64,000 nt of DNA from Polyangia bacterium (GTDB lineage Bacteria; Myxococcota_A; Polyangia; Palsa-1104; JAEUJZ01), in the NCBI GenBank assembly GCA_046351595.1, contig JAXLYE010000002.1, positions 1,432,022 through 1,496,021 of the forward strand. Direction: 5' to 3'. The position numbers were made by a program, and so were the translations under genes. Positions 45,844 to 54,969 of the stretch are shown piece after piece. Under the pieces are notes generated by a model. It was not told the DNA's origin, ran no database searches, and worked only from the letters and a program-made list of their open reading frames with translations. The number at the start of each line of letters is the position of its first letter. Position 1 is the stretch's first letter.

Positions 45844-46361
45844 GGCCGCGGGCCGCCTGCTGAGCCGTCGCCGTCGCGACGATGAGGGCGCGCCCGTGTG
45901 CCCGGGTGACACGCTGCGCGCGCCCCGCCCAGCGCCGCCTCTTAGTCGCTGAGCGCGGCGGGTGTGCGGCCTTGCCCCGATCGCCGCGATGCGCCGCCAC
46001 GGCTGGGCTGGGGCTCAGCCTTACGCATCTGTACGGCGACGGCCCTCGCTGCGGCCGCGGCCGTGCCGGGCCACGGTCGCTCTGTGTCCCTTGGCACAGA
46101 AGATGGAGTGGGCGGCACAGCCTCTCGCCTCTCTTCTCGCGCTCTTTCGCACCAGGTCGGGCACCAGGCCGGGCACCAGCCAGGCAGCGGGCCAGGCACC
46201 AGGCCGGGCCCCAGGTCCGGACCGGGGCCGCGCGCCGCCTGCGCGCCTGCGGCTCGACGGCCCGGACCGCGGTCGGGGGAGCGCCAACGTCGCCACCGAG
46301 GTCTGTCTGCGCGCCGACGCGGCCCCGCCTGCGCCCGCGCGCGAGCCACAGGAGGAGTCTC

Positions 46362-47369
46362 ATGCACAGCCAGAAGGGTCGCAGCCGTGAAGATCGTCGC
46401 TTCTCGAACCCGAACAGCCGCTCGGACTACGGCTCCGGCCGCGACTCCTTCCGCGGCTCCGACCGCGACCGCAGCAACGACCGCTACAGCCAGAGCGGCT
46501 CCGGCAACAGCGACTTCGGCCCCGGCGTCAGCGACCGCTGGATCCAGGACCGCGGCCGCGGCTACGGCAACGAGGAGCGCTACGGCCAGAGCTACGGCCA
46601 GAACCGCGGCATCGACGACCGCACCCGGAACCCCTGGGGCCGCGGCGAAGACCGGAGCCCCGGCTATGGCGGCCCCGGCTACGGCAGCCCCGGCTACGGC
46701 CCTGAAGATCGCCACGGCCAGAGCTACGGCCCGGCGAGCCGCGGCGGCTACGGCCGCGACGAAGGCAGCGAGCGCGGCGTCGCCCGCGCCGACCTGAACG
46801 ACGTGTCGCAGAGCTCGGGGGGCGCGGGCAGCCGCGGCGTGTGGCAAAAGGAGCACGAGGGCGCGTTCGCCTCGGTGTCGCGCGGCGGCTTCCTGCTGGA
46901 TCAGCGCGGCTATGGCCCGGACGAGTACGACCGCAACAACTACGGCGGCGCCTACACCGGCGGCTTCAGCCCGGCCGAGCGCGAGTTCTCCGGCAAGGGC
47001 CCCAAGGGCTACGTCCGCTCCGACGAGCGCATCCGCGAGGACGTGTGCGAGCGCCTGTCCGAGGGGCACCTCGACGCCAGCGACATCGACGTGCAGGTCA
47101 AGGACGGCGAGGTCACCCTGGTCGGCCAGGTTTCCGACCGCCGCACCAAGCGCCTCGTCGAGGAGCTGCTCGACCCCATCAAGGGCATCAAGGACGTCGA
47201 GAACAAGCTGAAGGTCCGCATGGCCACCGGCCGCAGCGACGCCGACAAGCTCGGGGGCCAGAAGCCCGAGGGCCAGAAGCCCGAGGGCCAGAAGCCCGCC
47301 GAGCCGCAGCGCACGAGCGACAACGGCAAGAGCGACCTCCCGAAGCTGAGCGGCGGCGCCCGGGCCTGA
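46362..47369 (+). CDS. BON-domain protein with a long intrinsically disordered R/G/Y/D-rich N-terminal region
   Basis: GGAGGA RBS 6 nt before the ATG. The first ~250 aa are low-complexity (GYG, RGG, DR repeats). The C-terminus DIDVQVKDGEVTLVGQVSDRRTKRLVEELLDPIKGIKDVENKLKV is a BON domain. A QKPEG x3 repeat lies at the extreme C-terminus. Confidence 0.7.
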   Translation: MHSQKGRSREDRRFSNPNSRSDYGSGRDSFRGSDRDRSNDRYSQSGSGNSDFGPGVSDRWIQDRGRGYGNEERYGQSYGQNRGIDDRTRNPWGRGEDRSPGYGGPGYGSPGYGPEDRHGQSYGPASRGGYGRDEGSERGVARADLNDVSQSSGGAGSRGVWQKEHEGAFASVSRGGFLLDQRGYGPDEYDRNNYGGAYTGGFSPAEREFSGKGPKGYVRSDERIREDVCERLSEGHLDASDIDVQVKDGEVTLVGQVSDRRTKRLVEELLDPIKGIKDVENKLKVRMATGRSDADKLGGQKPEGQKPEGQKPAEPQRTSDNGKSDLPKLSGGARA

Positions 47370-48162: not shown

Positions 48163-48304
48163 CGGTTCCTCCTTGGGATGTGTAGGGGAGGGCCATACTT
48201 TACACGAGGCCCGGACGGCATCCATCGGGTTCAAGGAGAGGATCTTGCCTGGTGCGAAATCTCATGGGATGGCAATTGGAGCGACGGTGTGATAGCGATT
48301 CGCA

Positions 48305-51300
48305 GTGCCTGGAATCTCGCTATCAGGCGATGGCAAGCCGTCGCTAACGCCAACCTGGGCGCAGGCGCTTCCCCAGGCACCATTACGGGCAATGCTCCTC
48401 GCTGGCGCCTGGAGCCCTGCGGTGCCAGCGGATGGCACGCTATTAGCGGAGCTGGGCAGCAACGCGGAAGCTGTCAGGACGTTGTGCGAGACGCTTGATG
48501 AGCAGCCAGAGGCCCGCGTACTTCACCGCCGTCTCCGCTGGACGCCCGTTGGGGAGCCGGGAGAGCGTTTTGTCTGGGAACAGCCCCGCAAGGCTTGGGG
48601 CTTGCTGGCACCGCTGCTGGATTCTGCGGACCTTGACCGATTTGCGCAGGTAGTCGAAAAGACCCTGCCGTCCGCTTTGGCGGATCAAGAAAGCCAGATA
48701 GCGAGGGGGCCTTCCAAGCTGATTCGTAGGGGGCTGACGTATAGCCTGGCACTCCTCGGCAACAGTGACGGGTTGATCCGCGTCACGCCGCCCCCGAGCG
48801 CACGGGCGACCCGAGTCGTGAGCAGGCTGCTCAAGCCCCAAGCCGAGCGCTGGCTTGCTCTGGCCGAGCATCTGGCCCTCCTGGCCGAAGCCGCCCCCGA
48901 CGCCTTTCTGACAGGGCTCTCCGAGAGTCTGGCGCTGGGCCGTGATGGGATCTCTTCTCTATGGGATGAGCACCCCGAGATCATCAAGCAGGTGGCGCAC
49001 GCTCTGGCCATACTGGCGTTGGATGTCGATCTGCTTGAGCGTGCAGCGCTAGGGCTTGCTGGTCTGGCAGCCGATGGCGGCCAGCCGCGACCCAACGTGC
49101 GCGACTCCCACCCGCTGCAGTGCTTAGAAGATATTTTTGATTATTACTATCCAAAAACAAACGCTTCCATCGAGGAGCGGCTGGACGTACTCCGCAAGAT
49201 CTGTGAACAGTTTGAACCAGTAGCTTGGCCTCTGCTGATGGAGCTTCTACCAGAGCCGCGGATGTTCAGCGTCAGTCTACCGCTACCTCAGGTCTTGCGC
49301 ATCTCTGTACCTCCCCGCGTACGTCAAGCATACCCCGGTGAGGCGTATGGGCAGATCCATGCCTTTTTGATGTTGGCGCTGAGGTTGGTCGGAACGGAGC
49401 CACAGCGGTGGGCCGATCTCCTTCGTCACCTGCATAGGCTACCGCCTGAGCTAGCGATCGAGGCATTGGAGCGCCTGCAAGCGAGCGCTGATGAGATTCA
49501 TGATGAGGAGGGCTTGGTCTGGGCCGCGCTGCGCACGCGCCTGCATGTGCTTTATGATGCGTCAGATGAGTCCAGTAACCAAGAAGAGGCGGCAGCCAAA
49601 CAGCGGATCCAGGACAAGATTTATAAGCTAGATGAGCTTCTTTATGAAAAGCTGACGCCTGCCCGCTTGGCCATCCGGTCTGCTTGGGCCTTTTCAACTG
49701 GAGCGCAGCCGCCGGGCCGATTTCGGAATCTAGAGGAGGAGCGGCAGGCTCTTGGCGAGCATCAGCAAGCCTACATCCGCATGTTGGGCCAGCGCTCGGA
49801 CCGGTGGGATGTATTGACCGAGCTGGCCGAGCGGATCGAGCAACCGTTCTGGTTGGCTCAGGCGCTTGCGATGAGCAGCTGGGCGGGTGAGTTCGAAACC
49901 AGGCTGCTGGCACAGAATTCATTCCATCCCTATGAAAAGATTGCATTTCACTTTCTCGCCTGGCGGCTGGTGAATCGGAATTTTTCTGATACCAGCCATC
50001 TGATGCGACGCCTGATGGCAGAGCATCGGTATGAAGACGTATGGCAGCTGGCTATAGCACTATCGGGTACCGCGGATGAGCGCGAGAGCTGTCTGTGGGA
50101 TCTGCTCGATGAATTAGGTGCGCCTGTCCGCGACGCTTACTGGCGTGAGATCGCGGTCGAGAAGCTGTATGGGAGGGCCCAGCGCCCCCAGCAGGCAAAC
50201 GAGCGGGCCATCTGCCGGCTGAAGGAGCTAGGGCGCTATGACGCGGCCATGCGTGCAGCCCTCGTGCTCAAGCCGCGTGCATCCAATTTGATTCTGCTGG
50301 ATGTGCTCGCCGCGGTTGCCGAAAAGCTCGAGGCGAGCGAGCGGGCCTGGCAGATTGAGAGGGAGCGATTACAGGCGCAGGGTGACCTGCAAGCACAAAT
50401 CAGCCATAGCTTGAGTCGAGGACCCCAGGAAGACAGATATCTTGTTGCGGAGCTGCTTGAGCAAGTCCACCCAAAAGACCCGATGGAAATGGAGAGGGCA
50501 AGGCAGCTGGAGGCGGCACTCCTCAGCCTGTTGGGAGAGACTCATTACAGACCGCGATGGTTGCCAAAGTACATCAGCGAGCATCCCGAAGGCTTTGTCA
50601 GGTTATGCCGGTCCGGTGCGGCCGAAGATCTCCTGGCCCTGTGGGATGGATTTCCTGGTGATGAGTTACCGACGCGCCAGGCGCTAGAACACCTCCATCA
50701 GTGGGCGGAGACGGTACTGACCCTGCTGCCCGCTGGTGACGGGCGCGCCGATGGACATCTTGCCCTGGCAGCGCTCCTGATTCGGCCCAGCGGTACCGAT
50801 GGAATCTGGCCGAGCGAGGCGGTCAGGAGGCTGCTTGATGAGCATCCAGAACTCTACAAGCCACTGCTGGACGCCAAGGGCCACCCCCGAGGCATCAGGA
50901 TGCGGCGGGTCGATACCCTGGTGCAAGAGGCTCGCGAACTGGCAGTCCGCTGCCGAGAAGGGAGTGCGAAGCTGCAGAGCAGCTGGCCGACCACCGCACG
51001 GCTCCTGAGTGAGCTGGCAGAAACGTACGAAGAGAAGGTCGAACTCCAGAGCAGTCTGGATGATTATGACCACCCAGGAATCCCGATGAGTTCCCCCAAA
51101 GCTGCGGCTCAGCCTCTTTTCCCTCTGCTGAAAGTTCAAATCGAGAATTTCCGTGCGGCTGAGCAGCTGAACTTGCCGCTGCACCCGCGGCTGACGGTTC
51201 TATATGGCCGAAATGCCAGCGGGAAGACGACTGTTCTGGACGCGGTAGCGATTGGGCTGAGCGCCATCGCGCGAAGGCTCCCGATGTCCAGCGAGGATGT

Positions 51301-52507
51301 GGAGCAGCGGCTGCCACAATTTCGTGATGCCGATCGTCACACCAGGTGGCGCCAGGGCAAAAGAGAAGAGAAGGCGAAGAGGATCAGCGTGTCGCTCTGG
51401 GGCCAGCCGCAGGAGCGGGGGAGCGACCCGCTCCACTGGCTCGTCGGGAGGCCATGGGCCAGTCGTGGTCCTGAGGTGGCTGATCGTGAGGATCCACAGC
51501 TACAGCCGTACTTGGATGCCGTTAATGAGGCGCTACGCACCGGCGATACGACCATCGCAATGCCGGTATTTGCCTACTATGGAGTTGAGCGCGCAGTCAG
51601 CGAACGAGCCAAAGAGGACGCGAGGCCTCCCAAAGAGAGCCCCAGCCGGCCGGCTGGTCTGGAGGGGGCGTTGCATGCTGCCGCACAGTTTGAAAAAGCG
51701 GCTCAATGGTTCCGAGGGATGGAGGACATTGAAGTCCGCCGCCAGCGTGAGAAGCGCGATTATGAACATCCGGCGCTTGCTGCCGTCCGCGCGGCCATTG
51801 CCGCTGCCGTAAAGACACCGGATGGATCATATGTCCGAAACCTGCGGGTCGATGCGGACACCAGCAAGCTGCGAATAGACTTCGTCCGCTCCAACGGAGC
51901 CGTTGAGAACCTGGAGATTGGACAGCTCTCGGACGGTTTCCGCACCCACCTTGCCCTCGTGTTGGATCTGGCGAGGCGTATGGCCCAGTGCAATCCATCT
52001 CCGGATGAACAGATGGAACGCGATGGCTTCGGTCTCCGATCCAATGCAGTCGTGCTGATCGACGAAGTGGATCTGCATCTCCACCCGGCCTGGCAGCAGA
52101 CGGTCCTTCCGGGTCTGCTCGAAGCTTTTCCCAGGGCTCAGTTCATCGTAACAACCCATAGTGTCCTTACGCTGGGCAGCATCCAGGATGCTCAGCTTTT
52201 CTTCATGGATGGCAGCCATGCAGAGAGTGTCGCTGCTCCGTTCGGAAAGGACGCCAGCCTGATCCTGCGTGAGTACCAGGGGACGGTTCCACGCGCAGCC
52301 GCCGTCGAGGATCGGATAAATGACATCAAGTCGCTGCTGGATCGCCGAGCGTTTGATGCAGCCCGGCGCGAAGTCGATCAGCTGGAGACTCAGCTTGGTG
52401 TAGAGGACCCGGATGTTCAGACGTTGCGCTCCCTTCTTTTTTTCATGGGCCCCGACAGACCATCCCCACAGCCCAGCAGCCAGGAGAGAGAAGAGGGGAG
52501 GAAATAG
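48305..52507 (+). CDS. Giant fusion protein: ~930-aa uncharacterised helical N-terminal region plus a C-terminal OLD/AAA_21-type (PtuA-like) ATPase
   Basis: Continuous 1400-aa ORF with GC3 clearly lower than its neighbours. Walker A LTVLYGRNASGKTTVLDA; Walker B plus LHP motif VVLIDEVDLHLHPAWQ; FIVTTHS motif. Start codon uncertain (GTG 48305). Confidence 0.75.
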   Translation: MPGISLSGDGKPSLTPTWAQALPQAPLRAMLLAGAWSPAVPADGTLLAELGSNAEAVRTLCETLDEQPEARVLHRRLRWTPVGEPGERFVWEQPRKAWGLLAPLLDSADLDRFAQVVEKTLPSALADQESQIARGPSKLIRRGLTYSLALLGNSDGLIRVTPPPSARATRVVSRLLKPQAERWLALAEHLALLAEAAPDAFLTGLSESLALGRDGISSLWDEHPEIIKQVAHALAILALDVDLLERAALGLAGLAADGGQPRPNVRDSHPLQCLEDIFDYYYPKTNASIEERLDVLRKICEQFEPVAWPLLMELLPEPRMFSVSLPLPQVLRISVPPRVRQAYPGEAYGQIHAFLMLALRLVGTEPQRWADLLRHLHRLPPELAIEALERLQASADEIHDEEGLVWAALRTRLHVLYDASDESSNQEEAAAKQRIQDKIYKLDELLYEKLTPARLAIRSAWAFSTGAQPPGRFRNLEEERQALGEHQQAYIRMLGQRSDRWDVLTELAERIEQPFWLAQALAMSSWAGEFETRLLAQNSFHPYEKIAFHFLAWRLVNRNFSDTSHLMRRLMAEHRYEDVWQLAIALSGTADERESCLWDLLDELGAPVRDAYWREIAVEKLYGRAQRPQQANERAICRLKELGRYDAAMRAALVLKPRASNLILLDVLAAVAEKLEASERAWQIERERLQAQGDLQAQISHSLSRGPQEDRYLVAELLEQVHPKDPMEMERARQLEAALLSLLGETHYRPRWLPKYISEHPEGFVRLCRSGAAEDLLALWDGFPGDELPTRQALEHLHQWAETVLTLLPAGDGRADGHLALAALLIRPSGTDGIWPSEAVRRLLDEHPELYKPLLDAKGHPRGIRMRRVDTLVQEARELAVRCREGSAKLQSSWPTTARLLSELAETYEEKVELQSSLDDYDHPGIPMSSPKAAAQPLFPLLKVQIENFRAAEQLNLPLHPRLTVLYGRNASGKTTVLDAVAIGLSAIARRLPMSSEDVEQRLPQFRDADRHTRWRQGKREEKAKRISVSLWGQPQERGSDPLHWLVGRPWASRGPEVADREDPQLQPYLDAVNEALRTGDTTIAMPVFAYYGVERAVSERAKEDARPPKESPSRPAGLEGALHAAAQFEKAAQWFRGMEDIEVRRQREKRDYEHPALAAVRAAIAAAVKTPDGSYVRNLRVDADTSKLRIDFVRSNGAVENLEIGQLSDGFRTHLALVLDLARRMAQCNPSPDEQMERDGFGLRSNAVVLIDEVDLHLHPAWQQTVLPGLLEAFPRAQFIVTTHSVLTLGSIQDAQLFFMDGSHAESVAAPFGKDASLILREYQGTVPRAAAVEDRINDIKSLLDRRAFDAARREVDQLETQLGVEDPDVQTLRSLLFFMGPDRPSPQPSSQEREEGRK

Positions 52508-52509
52508 GG

Positions 52510-53163
52510 TTGAGGCGTATCAACAAAGGTCCCGAGCCCCCTGCCCTCACTGCGTATAAACGCCGTGGGCGACAGCGCCTGGACAGTGACGCACCTCGTC
52601 AGGAACTGCGGGAAGCCTTGTGCCAAGAGCAGCGCTTTCTCTGCGCCTTTTGTCAATCGCACATCACGCCCGATGCGCAAAAGATGCGAATCGCGCATGT
52701 GATCCCCCAGGCCACCAGAGAGGGCGCCAACCTGGGCGTGGAATGGAACAATCTCGTTGGCTCCTGCACGGGTGGTGAGGGGAAACCTGCCAAAGAACAA
52801 CATTGCGATAAGAAACAAGAAGCCCAGCGGATCCCGGAGCGGCTGGACCCCGTGCGCCTACAAGAGGGGACCGTGCGTTTCGACGCTCAGGCTCGCATCC
52901 TCGGCTGCGATCCAGCTGTACAGCATGCGATCGATGATGTGCTCGGTCTGAATATATGGAGTTTGCGAAATTTAAGAGATAGTTGTCTGAAGAAATTAAT
53001 GTATCTTCTAGTTAACGATTGCTCAGAAAAGAAAATAAGAGAAGAGATCAGTAGGCTTGATGATCCATCGGCTCGCGAGTTGCCAGTCTGTGTGGACTAC
53101 CTTCTGTGGCGCCTGCACGAGAAACTTAACACCCTGAATAAGATGGACGCAGGGGCTGATTGA
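52510..53163 (+). CDS. HNH-family endonuclease, TIGR02646/PtuB-like, translationally coupled to the upstream ATPase
   Basis: TTG start 2 nt after the ATPase stop, with GGAGG 8 nt upstream. The N-terminus RRINKGPEPPALT is recalled as characteristic of the 'retron/Septu-associated HNH' family. Cys/His cluster CAFCQSH...H..P.....N....SC...HCD. The 3' third of the gene is about 35% GC. Confidence 0.65.
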   Translation: MRRINKGPEPPALTAYKRRGRQRLDSDAPRQELREALCQEQRFLCAFCQSHITPDAQKMRIAHVIPQATREGANLGVEWNNLVGSCTGGEGKPAKEQHCDKKQEAQRIPERLDPVRLQEGTVRFDAQARILGCDPAVQHAIDDVLGLNIWSLRNLRDSCLKKLMYLLVNDCSEKKIREEISRLDDPSARELPVCVDYLLWRLHEKLNTLNKMDAGAD

Positions 53164-53212
53164 GAGAAGGGGGTGGCTCGGGGCCTTAGCTGAGTGTCCA
53201 TGGACCGCTCGC

Positions 53213-53700
53213 GTGTGCTTGAGCGGTGAGATGAACGGACTGAGAGCCGGGACGAAATGCCTGAGCGCCAGCTCAAAGTGCCTGAGAGCCGGGAGCGAGT
53301 GCCTGAGCGCCAGCCAGAAGTGCCTGCGCGCTGGCTCAAAGTGCCTGAGAGCCCGGAACAAGTGCCTGAGAGCCAGCTCCAAGTGCCTGAGAGCCCGGAA
53401 CAAGTGCCTGAGAGCCGGGAGCGAGTGCCTGAGAGCCCGGAACAAGTGCCTGAGCGCCGGGATCAAGTGCCTGAGAGCCCGGACGAAGTGCCTGAGAGCC
53501 CGGAACAAGTGCCTGAGAGCCGGGATCAAGTGCCTGAGAGCCGGCTCAAAGTGCCTGAGAGCCGGGACGAAGTGCCTAAGAGCCGGCTCGAAGGGCCTGA
53601 GCGCCGGGCCAAAGTGCCTGAGAGCCGGCTCGAAGGGCCTGAGCGGCTGGAGCGAGTGTCTGAGCGGCTGGAGCGAGTGCCTGAGCGCCGGGGCCTAGGG
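53213..53700. repeat. Array of about 23 tandem 21-bp repeats (consensus gtgcctgagagccSggaMcaa) at the island boundary; open in several frames as heptad repeats
   Basis: Seen directly. There are no unique spacers, so it is not CRISPR. Frame +1 (53213..53698) gives KCLRAGS heptads and ends exactly at the patatin gene stop. Frame +2 gives VPESPEQ. The minus frame gives LRHLFRA. Confidence 0.85.
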
Positions 53701-54969
53701 CCAGATCTGCCTGAGGCGGTCGACGCTGCCTTGCAGGCCGAAGCGGGCGCAGACCTCGTCGAAGTGGTTGCGGCGGGCGCGCAGCTGGGCGGCGGCCGAC
53801 TGGTAGCCGTAGCGCAGGATCTGGGCGCGGACCTCGAAGTTCATGGGGTTTGCCAGGAACATGTCGGCCTCGCGCTCGTCGGGCTCAAGGACCAGGATGG
53901 TCGCGTCCTTGTACTCGGCGGCGCAGCGGCGCAGGCCCTGGTGCAGGCGGGCCTTGATCGACAGCCGCATCGCCTGGTCCGAGACCGTCAGGAGGCCGAG
54001 CTCCGCGAGGTGGCCGGGGCGGCCGGGCAGGTAGCCGCCGTGCGGCTCGGGCGCGCTCGGGTCGTGGCGGAAGGGCACCATGGGGTTGATGCACAGGACC
54101 AGCTTGGCGCCGCGCCGCAGCGCCACGTCGACGTGCTCGGCGCGGCCGGTGCCGCCGTCGACATAGTCGCGGCCGCGGATGCGCACCGGCTCGAACCAGA
54201 CCGGGATGGCGGAGCTGGCGCAGATGGCCTCGGCGATGCCGACGTCGGCGAGCGAGCCGCCCAGACCCCCGGGCGGTCCGCTGCCGAAGGCGCCCACCGG
54301 CCCACCCCCGGCCGCGGCAAGCGGCCCACCCCCGGCCGCGGCAAGCGGCCCACCAAGGATCGCGCGGTGCCCGGTGTCCAGGTCGTTGACCGGGATGTAC
54401 AGCTCGTGCGGCATGTCACACAGGCGCTCGGGGATGCCGTGCCGGCGTAAGAAGCGCTCGAGGTAGCGGTGGTAGGGCCGCAGCGAGAACAGCCCCGAGG
54501 GCAGCGCCCGCACGAGCTCGACGGGCAGCTCGGCCAGGCTGCGGCGGCCGCGGGCCACGCTCCACAGCACCCGCGCCGCCGCGACCGAGAGGCGCAGGCC
54601 CTGGGCCGCGGCGCGCAGCGGCTCGACCCGGAACATGTCCGTGCGGTGGTGCGGGATGAGGTGCTGCTCGAGCGGGTCGCCCAGGACCGCGTGCGCCAGC
54701 CGCCGCGGCGAGATGCCCGCGCACAGCGCCGTCGCCAGGTACGAGCCGGCCGAGATGCCGATGTAGATGTCGAAGCGCGTGGTGTCGAAGGGGCGGGGCG
54801 AGCGCTCGCCGTAGGCCGGGCGGAAGTAGTCGTCGATCGCGGCGAGCGCGCCGAGCTCGTACATGGCCCCGGTGATGCCGCCGCCGCACAGGCACAGCGC
54901 CAGCTTGTCCCGACCCGGGCCTGCCGCCTGTCCCGGGGGTGCTGCCGCGGCGCTTCCGACACTCGTCAT
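53695..54969 (-). CDS. Patatin-like phospholipase
   Basis: Oxyanion hole GGGITGAMYELG, nucleophile elbow GISAGS, and a catalytic Asp in DGG (YVDGGTG). A 24-bp duplication encodes GGGPLAAA twice. Confidence 0.8.
   Translation of the reverse strand: MTSVGSAAAAPPGQAAGPGRDKLALCLCGGGITGAMYELGALAAIDDYFRPAYGERSPRPFDTTRFDIYIGISAGSYLATALCAGISPRRLAHAVLGDPLEQHLIPHHRTDMFRVEPLRAAAQGLRLSVAAARVLWSVARGRRSLAELPVELVRALPSGLFSLRPYHRYLERFLRRHGIPERLCDMPHELYIPVNDLDTGHRAILGGPLAAAGGGPLAAAGGGPVGAFGSGPPGGLGGSLADVGIAEAICASSAIPVWFEPVRIRGRDYVDGGTGRAEHVDVALRRGAKLVLCINPMVPFRHDPSAPEPHGGYLPGRPGHLAELGLLTVSDQAMRLSIKARLHQGLRRCAAEYKDATILVLEPDEREADMFLANPMNFEVRAQILRYGYQSAAAQLRARRNHFDEVCARFGLQGSVDRLRQIWP

Follow-up and report, generated by a model that had tools for sequence, protein, structure and literature searches.

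A PtuA fused to a large helical module of a widespread unnamed protein family in a Septu operon of a Polyangia bacterium

The window analysed here, a stretch of 64,000 nucleotides (nt) from a Polyangia bacterium (contig JAXLYE010000002.1 of assembly GCA_046351595.1, positions 1,432,022 to 1,496,021 of the forward strand), carries a two-gene Septu operon in which the ATPase PtuA is preceded, within one open reading frame (ORF), by some 900 residues of helical sequence and is followed directly by the HNH nuclease PtuB. We regard this locus as a rare Septu subtype with a module borrowed from the sensor position of a large, unnamed NLR-like protein family. That PtuA gained the module by fusion, and that the module acts in cis as a receptor or gate, is an account that we consider moderately probable.

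The fused gene extends from 48305 to 52507 on the forward strand as one uninterrupted frame of 1400 codons, counted from the first possible start, and comprises a helical module, a linker and the PtuA ATPase. The ATPase is a complete ABC/SMC-type domain placed at aa 941–1378 (51125 to 52438, +) by profile matches and by alignment to the PDB. The PADLOC profiles for PtuA cover this region from end to end, with PDLC00311 matching over positions 3–445 of 455 at an expectation value (E) of 1.4e-89, and residues 5–451 of the solved PtuA from E. coli (8EE4, 465 aa) align to aa 943–1375 with E 1.4e-32. The Walker A motif GRNASGKT (aa 968–975, nt 51206 to 51229), which is the sole P-loop of the protein, the signature-like LSDG (aa 1208), the Walker B motif VVLIDE (aa 1249–1254, nt 52049 to 52066) and the H-loop TTHS (aa 1283), all on the forward strand, are intact. 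PtuB, the nuclease partner of 217 aa (52510 to 53163, +), starts from a TTG that lies 2 nt past the stop of PtuA. Its ORF matches PDLC00322 over positions 1–213 of 215 (E 5e-40) as well as NCBIfam PtuB and TIGR02646, these last two under cut-off, and the NCBIfam models of retron-type PtuA and PtuB likewise match the pair under their cut-offs. With a full-length PtuA, intact Walker A and B motifs and PtuB directly downstream, the locus is that of a Septu system, in which PtuA departs from the ordinary size and architecture by its length of 1400 aa and its 940 additional N-terminal residues (911 if translation begins at ATG 48392). The preliminary description of this DNA, made from its letters and ORFs, had proposed a single ORF with an extension of roughly 930 residues before a PtuA-like ATPase, and the frame and the PADLOC matches bear this out, with about 900 residues before a complete PtuA and with PtuB downstream; the start that had been given for the ATPase, 51100, is corrected to 51125, with the helical module ending near aa 915 (51049).

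GC contents at codon positions 1, 2 and 3 are about 0.70, 0.45 and 0.66 in every block of 100 codons from 48305 to 52507, and this uniformity indicates that one frame is used throughout, with no sign of a frame change. The same fusion, also in a single frame, recurs in about ten protein clusters (including P0002–P0006 and P0182–P0185) at 34–70% identity, and tblastn with the window protein finds single-frame matches over both parts in five other loci (L003, L008, L009, L011 and L012). In four of these five (L003, L009, L011 and L012) a full-length homologue of PtuB lies downstream. The fifth has in its place, after the fused homologue P0183, an ORF of 91 aa (L008, 10088 to 10363) of which 58 aa (aa 34–90) match PtuB, so that the nuclease partner there may be truncated or decayed. 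A frameshift or sequencing error that would have created the long ORF from two, a concern of the preliminary description, is ruled out by the even codon-position GC and by the five other single-frame loci. It could still be argued that the gene is an accident or a product of decay, in which a truncated receptor-like gene was joined to PtuA with a non-functional N-terminal part, or an artefact of assembly or sequencing: the sequence comes from a metagenome-assembled genome (MAG), the protein is without the nuclease and NBD-like (nucleotide-binding domain-like) domains of the family from which its module stems, and PtuB is degraded in the relative L008. Yet the fusion is found in the same single frame in independent MAG assemblies of Polyangia, Myxococcales and Pseudomonadota, the codon-position composition is even over the whole ORF, the near-invariant residues of the family are kept and the AlphaFold2 model of the module is confident (pLDDT 85.2), and we give an accidental origin next to no credence.

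The fusion is rare as well as recurrent. In an alignment-based scan of one genome per GTDB species, full-length fusions account for 2 of the best 80 PtuA loci, and the other 78 match the query over aa ~812–1358 only, at 26–39% identity, which corresponds to PtuA by itself or slightly extended. A single-sequence scan of the same genome contigs gave 66 pattern matches and no true relative among them, and a third profile search of a word-indexed protein database added little. Besides the window, which is from a Polyangia MAG, the fused loci recovered come from an uncultured MAG of Myxococcales and one of Pseudomonadota, and so represent separate assemblies and taxa. Their helical modules form a group of their own, with identities of at least 0.32 within the group and at most 0.29 to any non-fused member, a pattern that is consistent with descent of the PtuA fusions from one old fusion event, maintained by selection. 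The architecture that the preliminary description had suggested to be new is real and rare, and recurs in single frame. The companion suggestion, that homologues of the N-terminal region might stand alone next to PtuA and PtuB, found no counterpart: no stand-alone module beside these genes was found when the contigs of two of the six top module-only matches, proteins of about 890–930 aa, were looked up, and these two (P0130 and P0152) begin at or near the end of contigs of 3–4 kb and look like fragments.

Translation of the fused gene could also begin at ATG 48392 (aa 30, +) or GTG 48422 (aa 40, +). The NCBI protein, MFO0574952.1 of the Polyangia MAG, starts from the latter and has 1361 aa, which removes the conserved family motif LLAGAW (aa 31–36) and the conserved residues P16 and W18. 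Because homology to the relatives opens at aa 15, translation probably begins at GTG 48305 or at ATG 48392.

The helical module itself spans aa 15–915 (48347 to 51049, +) and is rich in leucine (15.5%), alanine (12.6%), glutamate (9.0%) and arginine (8.9%). Residues 1–940 have no match in Pfam, NCBIfam, PADLOC or the sequences of the PDB, and searches of the PDB sequences with the single protein and with profiles were empty both for the module and for the family to which it belongs. AlphaFold2, run on aa 30–940 with an alignment of 28 sequences, predicts an almost wholly helical structure of about 50 helices with a few short strands near the start (mean predicted local distance difference test score, pLDDT, 85.2; predicted template modelling score, pTM, 0.65); as modelled, the module is an irregular alpha-helical array. 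It opens with a helix-helix-strand-strand-helix element at aa ~41–104, and the order of its secondary structure, the whole basis of the comparison, suggests that this may be a winged helix of the kind that follows the NBD in STAND proteins. The last 20 residues of the model (aa 921–940, model residues 892–911) have pLDDT <50; they are disordered and mark a flexible linker to PtuA, which on the model confidence and the domain edges was placed at aa 916–940 (51050 to 51124, +). The extension contains no convincing transmembrane segment, the best 19-mer reaching 1.6 on the Kyte-Doolittle scale with K and D inside, and profile searches detect no nuclease domain in it. In these respects the preliminary description, which had an all-helical, non-membrane extension free of nuclease motifs, was accurate. 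Its suggestion of HEAT/ARM-like repeats fared less well: internal sequence repeats are not detectable in the module, and an identity as HEAT, ARM or TPR repeats is unsupported by any family-profile match or periodicity.

Searching with aa 1–940 returned, besides the PtuA fusions, proteins of about 1250–1370 aa that have no ATPase and whose C-terminal end, from about aa 350/440 on, is the part that matches. The homology spans aa 15–915 at 24–29% identity, with E values down to 1e-47 for the single sequence and 1e-264 for a profile. A profile made from ten trimmed modules (alignment A2) and searched against 1.84 billion representatives retrieves 7,719 clusters (50% identity) with E ≤ 1e-3, of which 4,303 reach E ≤ 1e-30, and nearly all of its top 150 matches share the layout just described. 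The family is phrog_18693, a cluster of ‘unknown function’ whose full profile is matched by the member P0013, and which the window module matches over aa 168–674 (E 3.9e-29). Members are annotated as ‘hypothetical protein’ or, often, as ‘helix-turn-helix transcriptional regulator’, as is the case for WP_200964485.1 from Achromobacter sp. Root83, and proteins of this type have no model in Pfam, NCBIfam or PADLOC. The extension remains as uncharacterised as it had been called, although it is not unique, belonging as it does to a family of thousands that was already clustered. Residues that are near-invariant in this family (W18, W36, D43, E195, P198, W613, E736, W800 and W835-P836) are retained in the window protein. 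Over 186 modules, conservation is higher at aa 15–314 and 715–914 and lowest at aa 315–714.

A typical member of the parent family has about 1250 aa and consists of a PD-(D/E)xK nuclease, a P-loop-less AAA+/STAND-like domain and the helical module; the N-terminal domain of about 350 aa is present in 170 of 188 fetched members, sometimes after an XRE-type helix-turn-helix (HTH) domain. For P0013, AlphaFold2 predicts two subdomains in this region (pLDDT 86.5, pTM 0.84), and for the whole N-terminal domain Foldseek ranks first Avs4 in complex with a phage portal (E 5e-4, probability 0.98). The residues D54 and E74, which are invariant, and K84, found in 151 of 156 (about 155 representatives), make up a PD-(D/E)xK-like triad, and in the AAA+/STAND-like fold R200 is invariant and E227 near-invariant. 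No G-x4-GK[ST] motif occurs in the 188 proteins outside C-terminal ABC ATPases. On these models the family would have an NLR-like layout of nuclease, NBD-like fold and long helical region with a degenerate nucleotide site, and this order puts the module at the sensor position of NLR/Avs proteins. The nuclease and the NBD-like domain are missing from the window protein and from all ten PtuA fusions. Elsewhere in the family the module is found with N-terminal PNP_UDP_1 phosphorylase domains (P0066 and P0144), or with the nuclease and NBD-like domain on one side and on the other a different C-terminal ABC ATPase (P0007, L007 2163 to 7055, and P0029), for which HEC-01A and mad3 are the best PADLOC matches. 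To judge by these sequences, the effectors around the module, among them PNP_UDP_1, a different ABC ATPase and the XRE HTH, appear to be exchangeable.

The genomic surroundings of the parent family were examined in eight neighbourhoods of non-fused members, six of which contain annotated defence, toxin-antitoxin or integrase genes. In Achromobacter the neighbours are an integrase, TrfA and a MazE-like gene; a second neighbourhood has PemK with an integrase, and a third a type I restriction-modification (RM) system with an integrase. A conjugative Rhizobium plasmid has AbiEi/AbiEii and a restriction endonuclease, a Thalassospira plasmid an Abi protein, SIR2, two RES-Xre pairs and AbiEii, and an Acetobacter plasmid a type I RM system, a restriction endonuclease and an insertion sequence (IS). 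The remaining two hold a PIN-domain gene only (the fourth neighbourhood) or only IS5 elements with their transposases (Ralstonia). Altogether 25 plasmid records contain a family member. Copies of the parent family include that of P0013 (L001, 8001 to 11753) and the plasmid copies of L010 and L091–L093. The parent family looks like an unrecognised single-gene defence candidate.

Taken with the domain arrangement of the window protein, these relatives lead us to favour a sensor or regulatory role for the extension, by analogy with NLR and Avs proteins. The preliminary description had thought of a phage sensor or regulatory domain; homology to a module in the sensor position favours that idea, and sensing as such we infer. 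In the mechanism that we propose, the helical module would be a receptor or gate fused in cis to the N-terminus of PtuA through a flexible linker of about 25 residues, and in the uninfected cell it would keep the assembly of PtuA and PtuB inactive. A phage-derived ligand, most likely a protein, would bind to the module in its variable middle, and binding would alter the oligomerisation or the ATP state of PtuA. PtuB would then be licensed to cut nucleic acid, so that the phage or the infected cell is stopped. In this way the role of assembly engine, held in the parent family by its degenerate NBD, would fall to the ABC-type ATPase, and that of effector, held there by the N-terminal nuclease, to PtuB. 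Autoinhibition and the step of activation, like the recognition of a ligand, are drawn here from analogy.

The main rival of this proposal holds that the module is not a sensor of ligands but an assembly scaffold or a built-in antitoxin, by which PtuA's oligomeric state is determined or PtuB is masked. Activation would then follow the pattern of plain Septu, triggered for instance by falling ATP or by another route, and the module would add regulation or stability but not recognition. The sensor position that the module holds in the parent family, after the nuclease and the NBD-like domain, the several unrelated effectors to which it is joined and the low conservation of its central 400 residues are together better fitted by a recognition module than by a fixed scaffold, and we consider the scaffold or antitoxin unlikely. 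Several points nonetheless weigh against a cis-acting receptor. Neither an experiment nor a ligand is on record for any protein of the module family. Walker A is absent from all examined members of the parent family, which for this reason cannot count as a true STAND NTPase, and the analogy with NLR proteins rests on fold and domain order. The structural models each cover one part, the window module or the N-terminal domain of P0013. The defence context of the parent family comes from eight neighbourhoods and is not a matter of statistics, and one fused locus (L008) has only the 58-aa match to PtuB.

Compared with known systems, the locus shares with Septu type I (8EE4) a complete PtuA and an adjacent PtuB in a two-gene operon, and differs in the size of PtuA, which has 465 aa in the solved stand-alone protein and 1400 aa here. 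Retron-associated PtuA chains have 542–552 aa and the PADLOC profiles of PtuA 289–773 positions. According to one report, stand-alone Septu forms a 6:2 complex of PtuA and PtuB whose nuclease is inhibited by ATP (PMC12640716). In retron I-A, PtuAB is neutralised by the complex of reverse transcriptase (RT) and multicopy single-stranded DNA (msDNA); in Ec78 docking is partly via an N-terminal extension of PtuA that is absent from stand-alone PtuA; PtuAB has been described as being co-opted by added elements (PMC12819146). Published work thus shows PtuAB as an effector module that has been placed under different controls. The likeness of our locus to Septu type II, or retron type I-A (Ec78/Eco7 and Ec83/Eco4), lies in a PtuAB effector with an added sensing or neutralising partner (PMC12819146; PMC12640716), which is RT-msDNA in the retrons and a covalently fused protein module of 100 kDa here. 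With proteins of the phrog_18693 type the window protein shares the homologous module over aa 15–915 and its near-invariant residues; where these have a nuclease and an NBD-like domain, it has instead PtuA at the opposite, C-terminal end.

With Avs and other NLR-like STAND proteins (such as Avs4, PDB 8DGF) the relationship is one of order at the level of the fold: the succession of effector, NBD and C-terminal helical sensor is seen in the parent family, from every examined member of which Walker A is missing, and the window protein keeps the last part only, with an ABC-type ATPase and without any NBD-like domain. No sequence similarity and no specific structural similarity was found between the module and solved Avs sensors, which are mostly helical repeats (bioRxiv 10.64898/2026.01.04.697583). 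A precedent for the movement of one large helical sensor between unrelated defence chassis, and for its pairing with many effectors, is the Avs7 sensor, which is common to the non-STAND protein Dsr1 (Lee et al. 2026, bioRxiv 10.64898/2026.01.04.697583). The module has no match in PADLOC, a library that would be expected to include models of Dsr1. The 2026 census of Avs proteins (bioRxiv 10.64898/2026.01.04.697583) makes no mention of PtuA or Septu, and looking up family members by accession in the supplements searched gave no match; the parent family may appear in that census under a different name. In the searchable literature we came across no account of a PtuA that carries a module of this kind.

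A broader reading, which we hold to be possible but less likely than not, is that the module marks a widespread family of NLR-like pattern-recognition receptors without a P-loop, and that its sensor can be moved from a chassis of nuclease and pseudo-NBD to the ABC-ATPase and HNH chassis of Septu. If so, sensors of phage proteins could be transferred between assembly engines of the STAND-like and the SMC/ABC-like kind, and the fusion would constitute a third type of Septu, distinct in having its protein sensor built in. Little is understood of the way in which stand-alone Septu recognises infection, and a naturally occurring PtuA to which a candidate sensor is covalently attached offers a direct experimental handle. 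The comparison also exposes thousands of proteins of about 1250 aa from defence islands that have the layout of immune receptors and no P-loop; if active, these would amount to a single-gene defence system that is common yet unrecognised, and to another case of sensor-effector shuffling in bacterial immunity.

The PtuA–PtuB pair occupies a 5.4-kb island of foreign composition (48235 to 53694) with 61% GC, as against about 71% around it, and apart from the two Septu genes this island holds nothing but a tandem repeat. GC at third codon positions (GC3) is 0.58–0.66 in the island genes and about 0.95 in both flanking genes. In our reading the Septu operon is horizontally acquired. Such a setting bears on the idea that the locus has a housekeeping role outside immunity, the module being an alpha-solenoid partner of an SMC-like ATPase in the manner of the HEAT subunits of condensin. 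A long helical protein joined to an SMC-type ATPase in one ORF is what this idea seeks to explain, but the ATPase matches a PtuA profile with E 1e-89 and has an HNH PtuB directly downstream, both genes lie within the foreign island, and relatives of the module have RM, Abi, toxin-antitoxin and integrase genes as neighbours, are carried by plasmids and belong to a phage protein family. The patchy distribution of the fusions, with two in the best 80 PtuA loci of species-representative genomes, points the same way. We judge a housekeeping function very improbable; it conflicts with the data, as does the reading of the fusion as an artefact. A retron-coupled Septu is likewise ruled out, as neither an RT gene nor a retron non-coding RNA is present in or beside the island, and at the gathering threshold Rfam reports only two tRNAs across the whole window.

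The neighbouring genes encode DnaB, a BON-domain protein, a 284-aa protein, a patatin-like protein and a BamD/YfiO-like lipoprotein, and the 284-aa ORF, which flanks the island, has no match in Pfam or to another family. No direct repeats that might mark an integration site were found flanking the island. ARAGORN calls a tRNA-Arg(tct) of 83 nt at 47229 to 47311 (−), inside the ORF of the BON-domain protein (45882 to 47369) and about 1 kb upstream of the island, where it overlaps a 15-bp tandem repeat (47247 to 47298). This tRNA is probably a false positive, since Rfam does not report it; a genuine tRNA here, some 1 kb off the island, would make a candidate site of integration.

Directly downstream of PtuB, from 53240 to 53692, a 21-bp unit with the consensus CTGAGAGCCGGGACGAAGTGC is repeated in 21.6 tandem copies, which fill the space up to the convergent patatin-like gene and lie at the right edge of the island. 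The core of the repeat, GTGCCTGAGMGCC, is present in 18 copies in this interval and nowhere else in the window, where about one would be expected by chance. No convincing gene spans the repeat, whose period corresponds to seven codons and could therefore encode a heptapeptide repeat. Patatin-like phospholipases serve as effectors in some bacterial defence systems. The patatin-like phospholipase gene that abuts the island (53695 to 54969, −) has a host-like GC3 of 0.95 and for that reason is probably not part of the acquired system.

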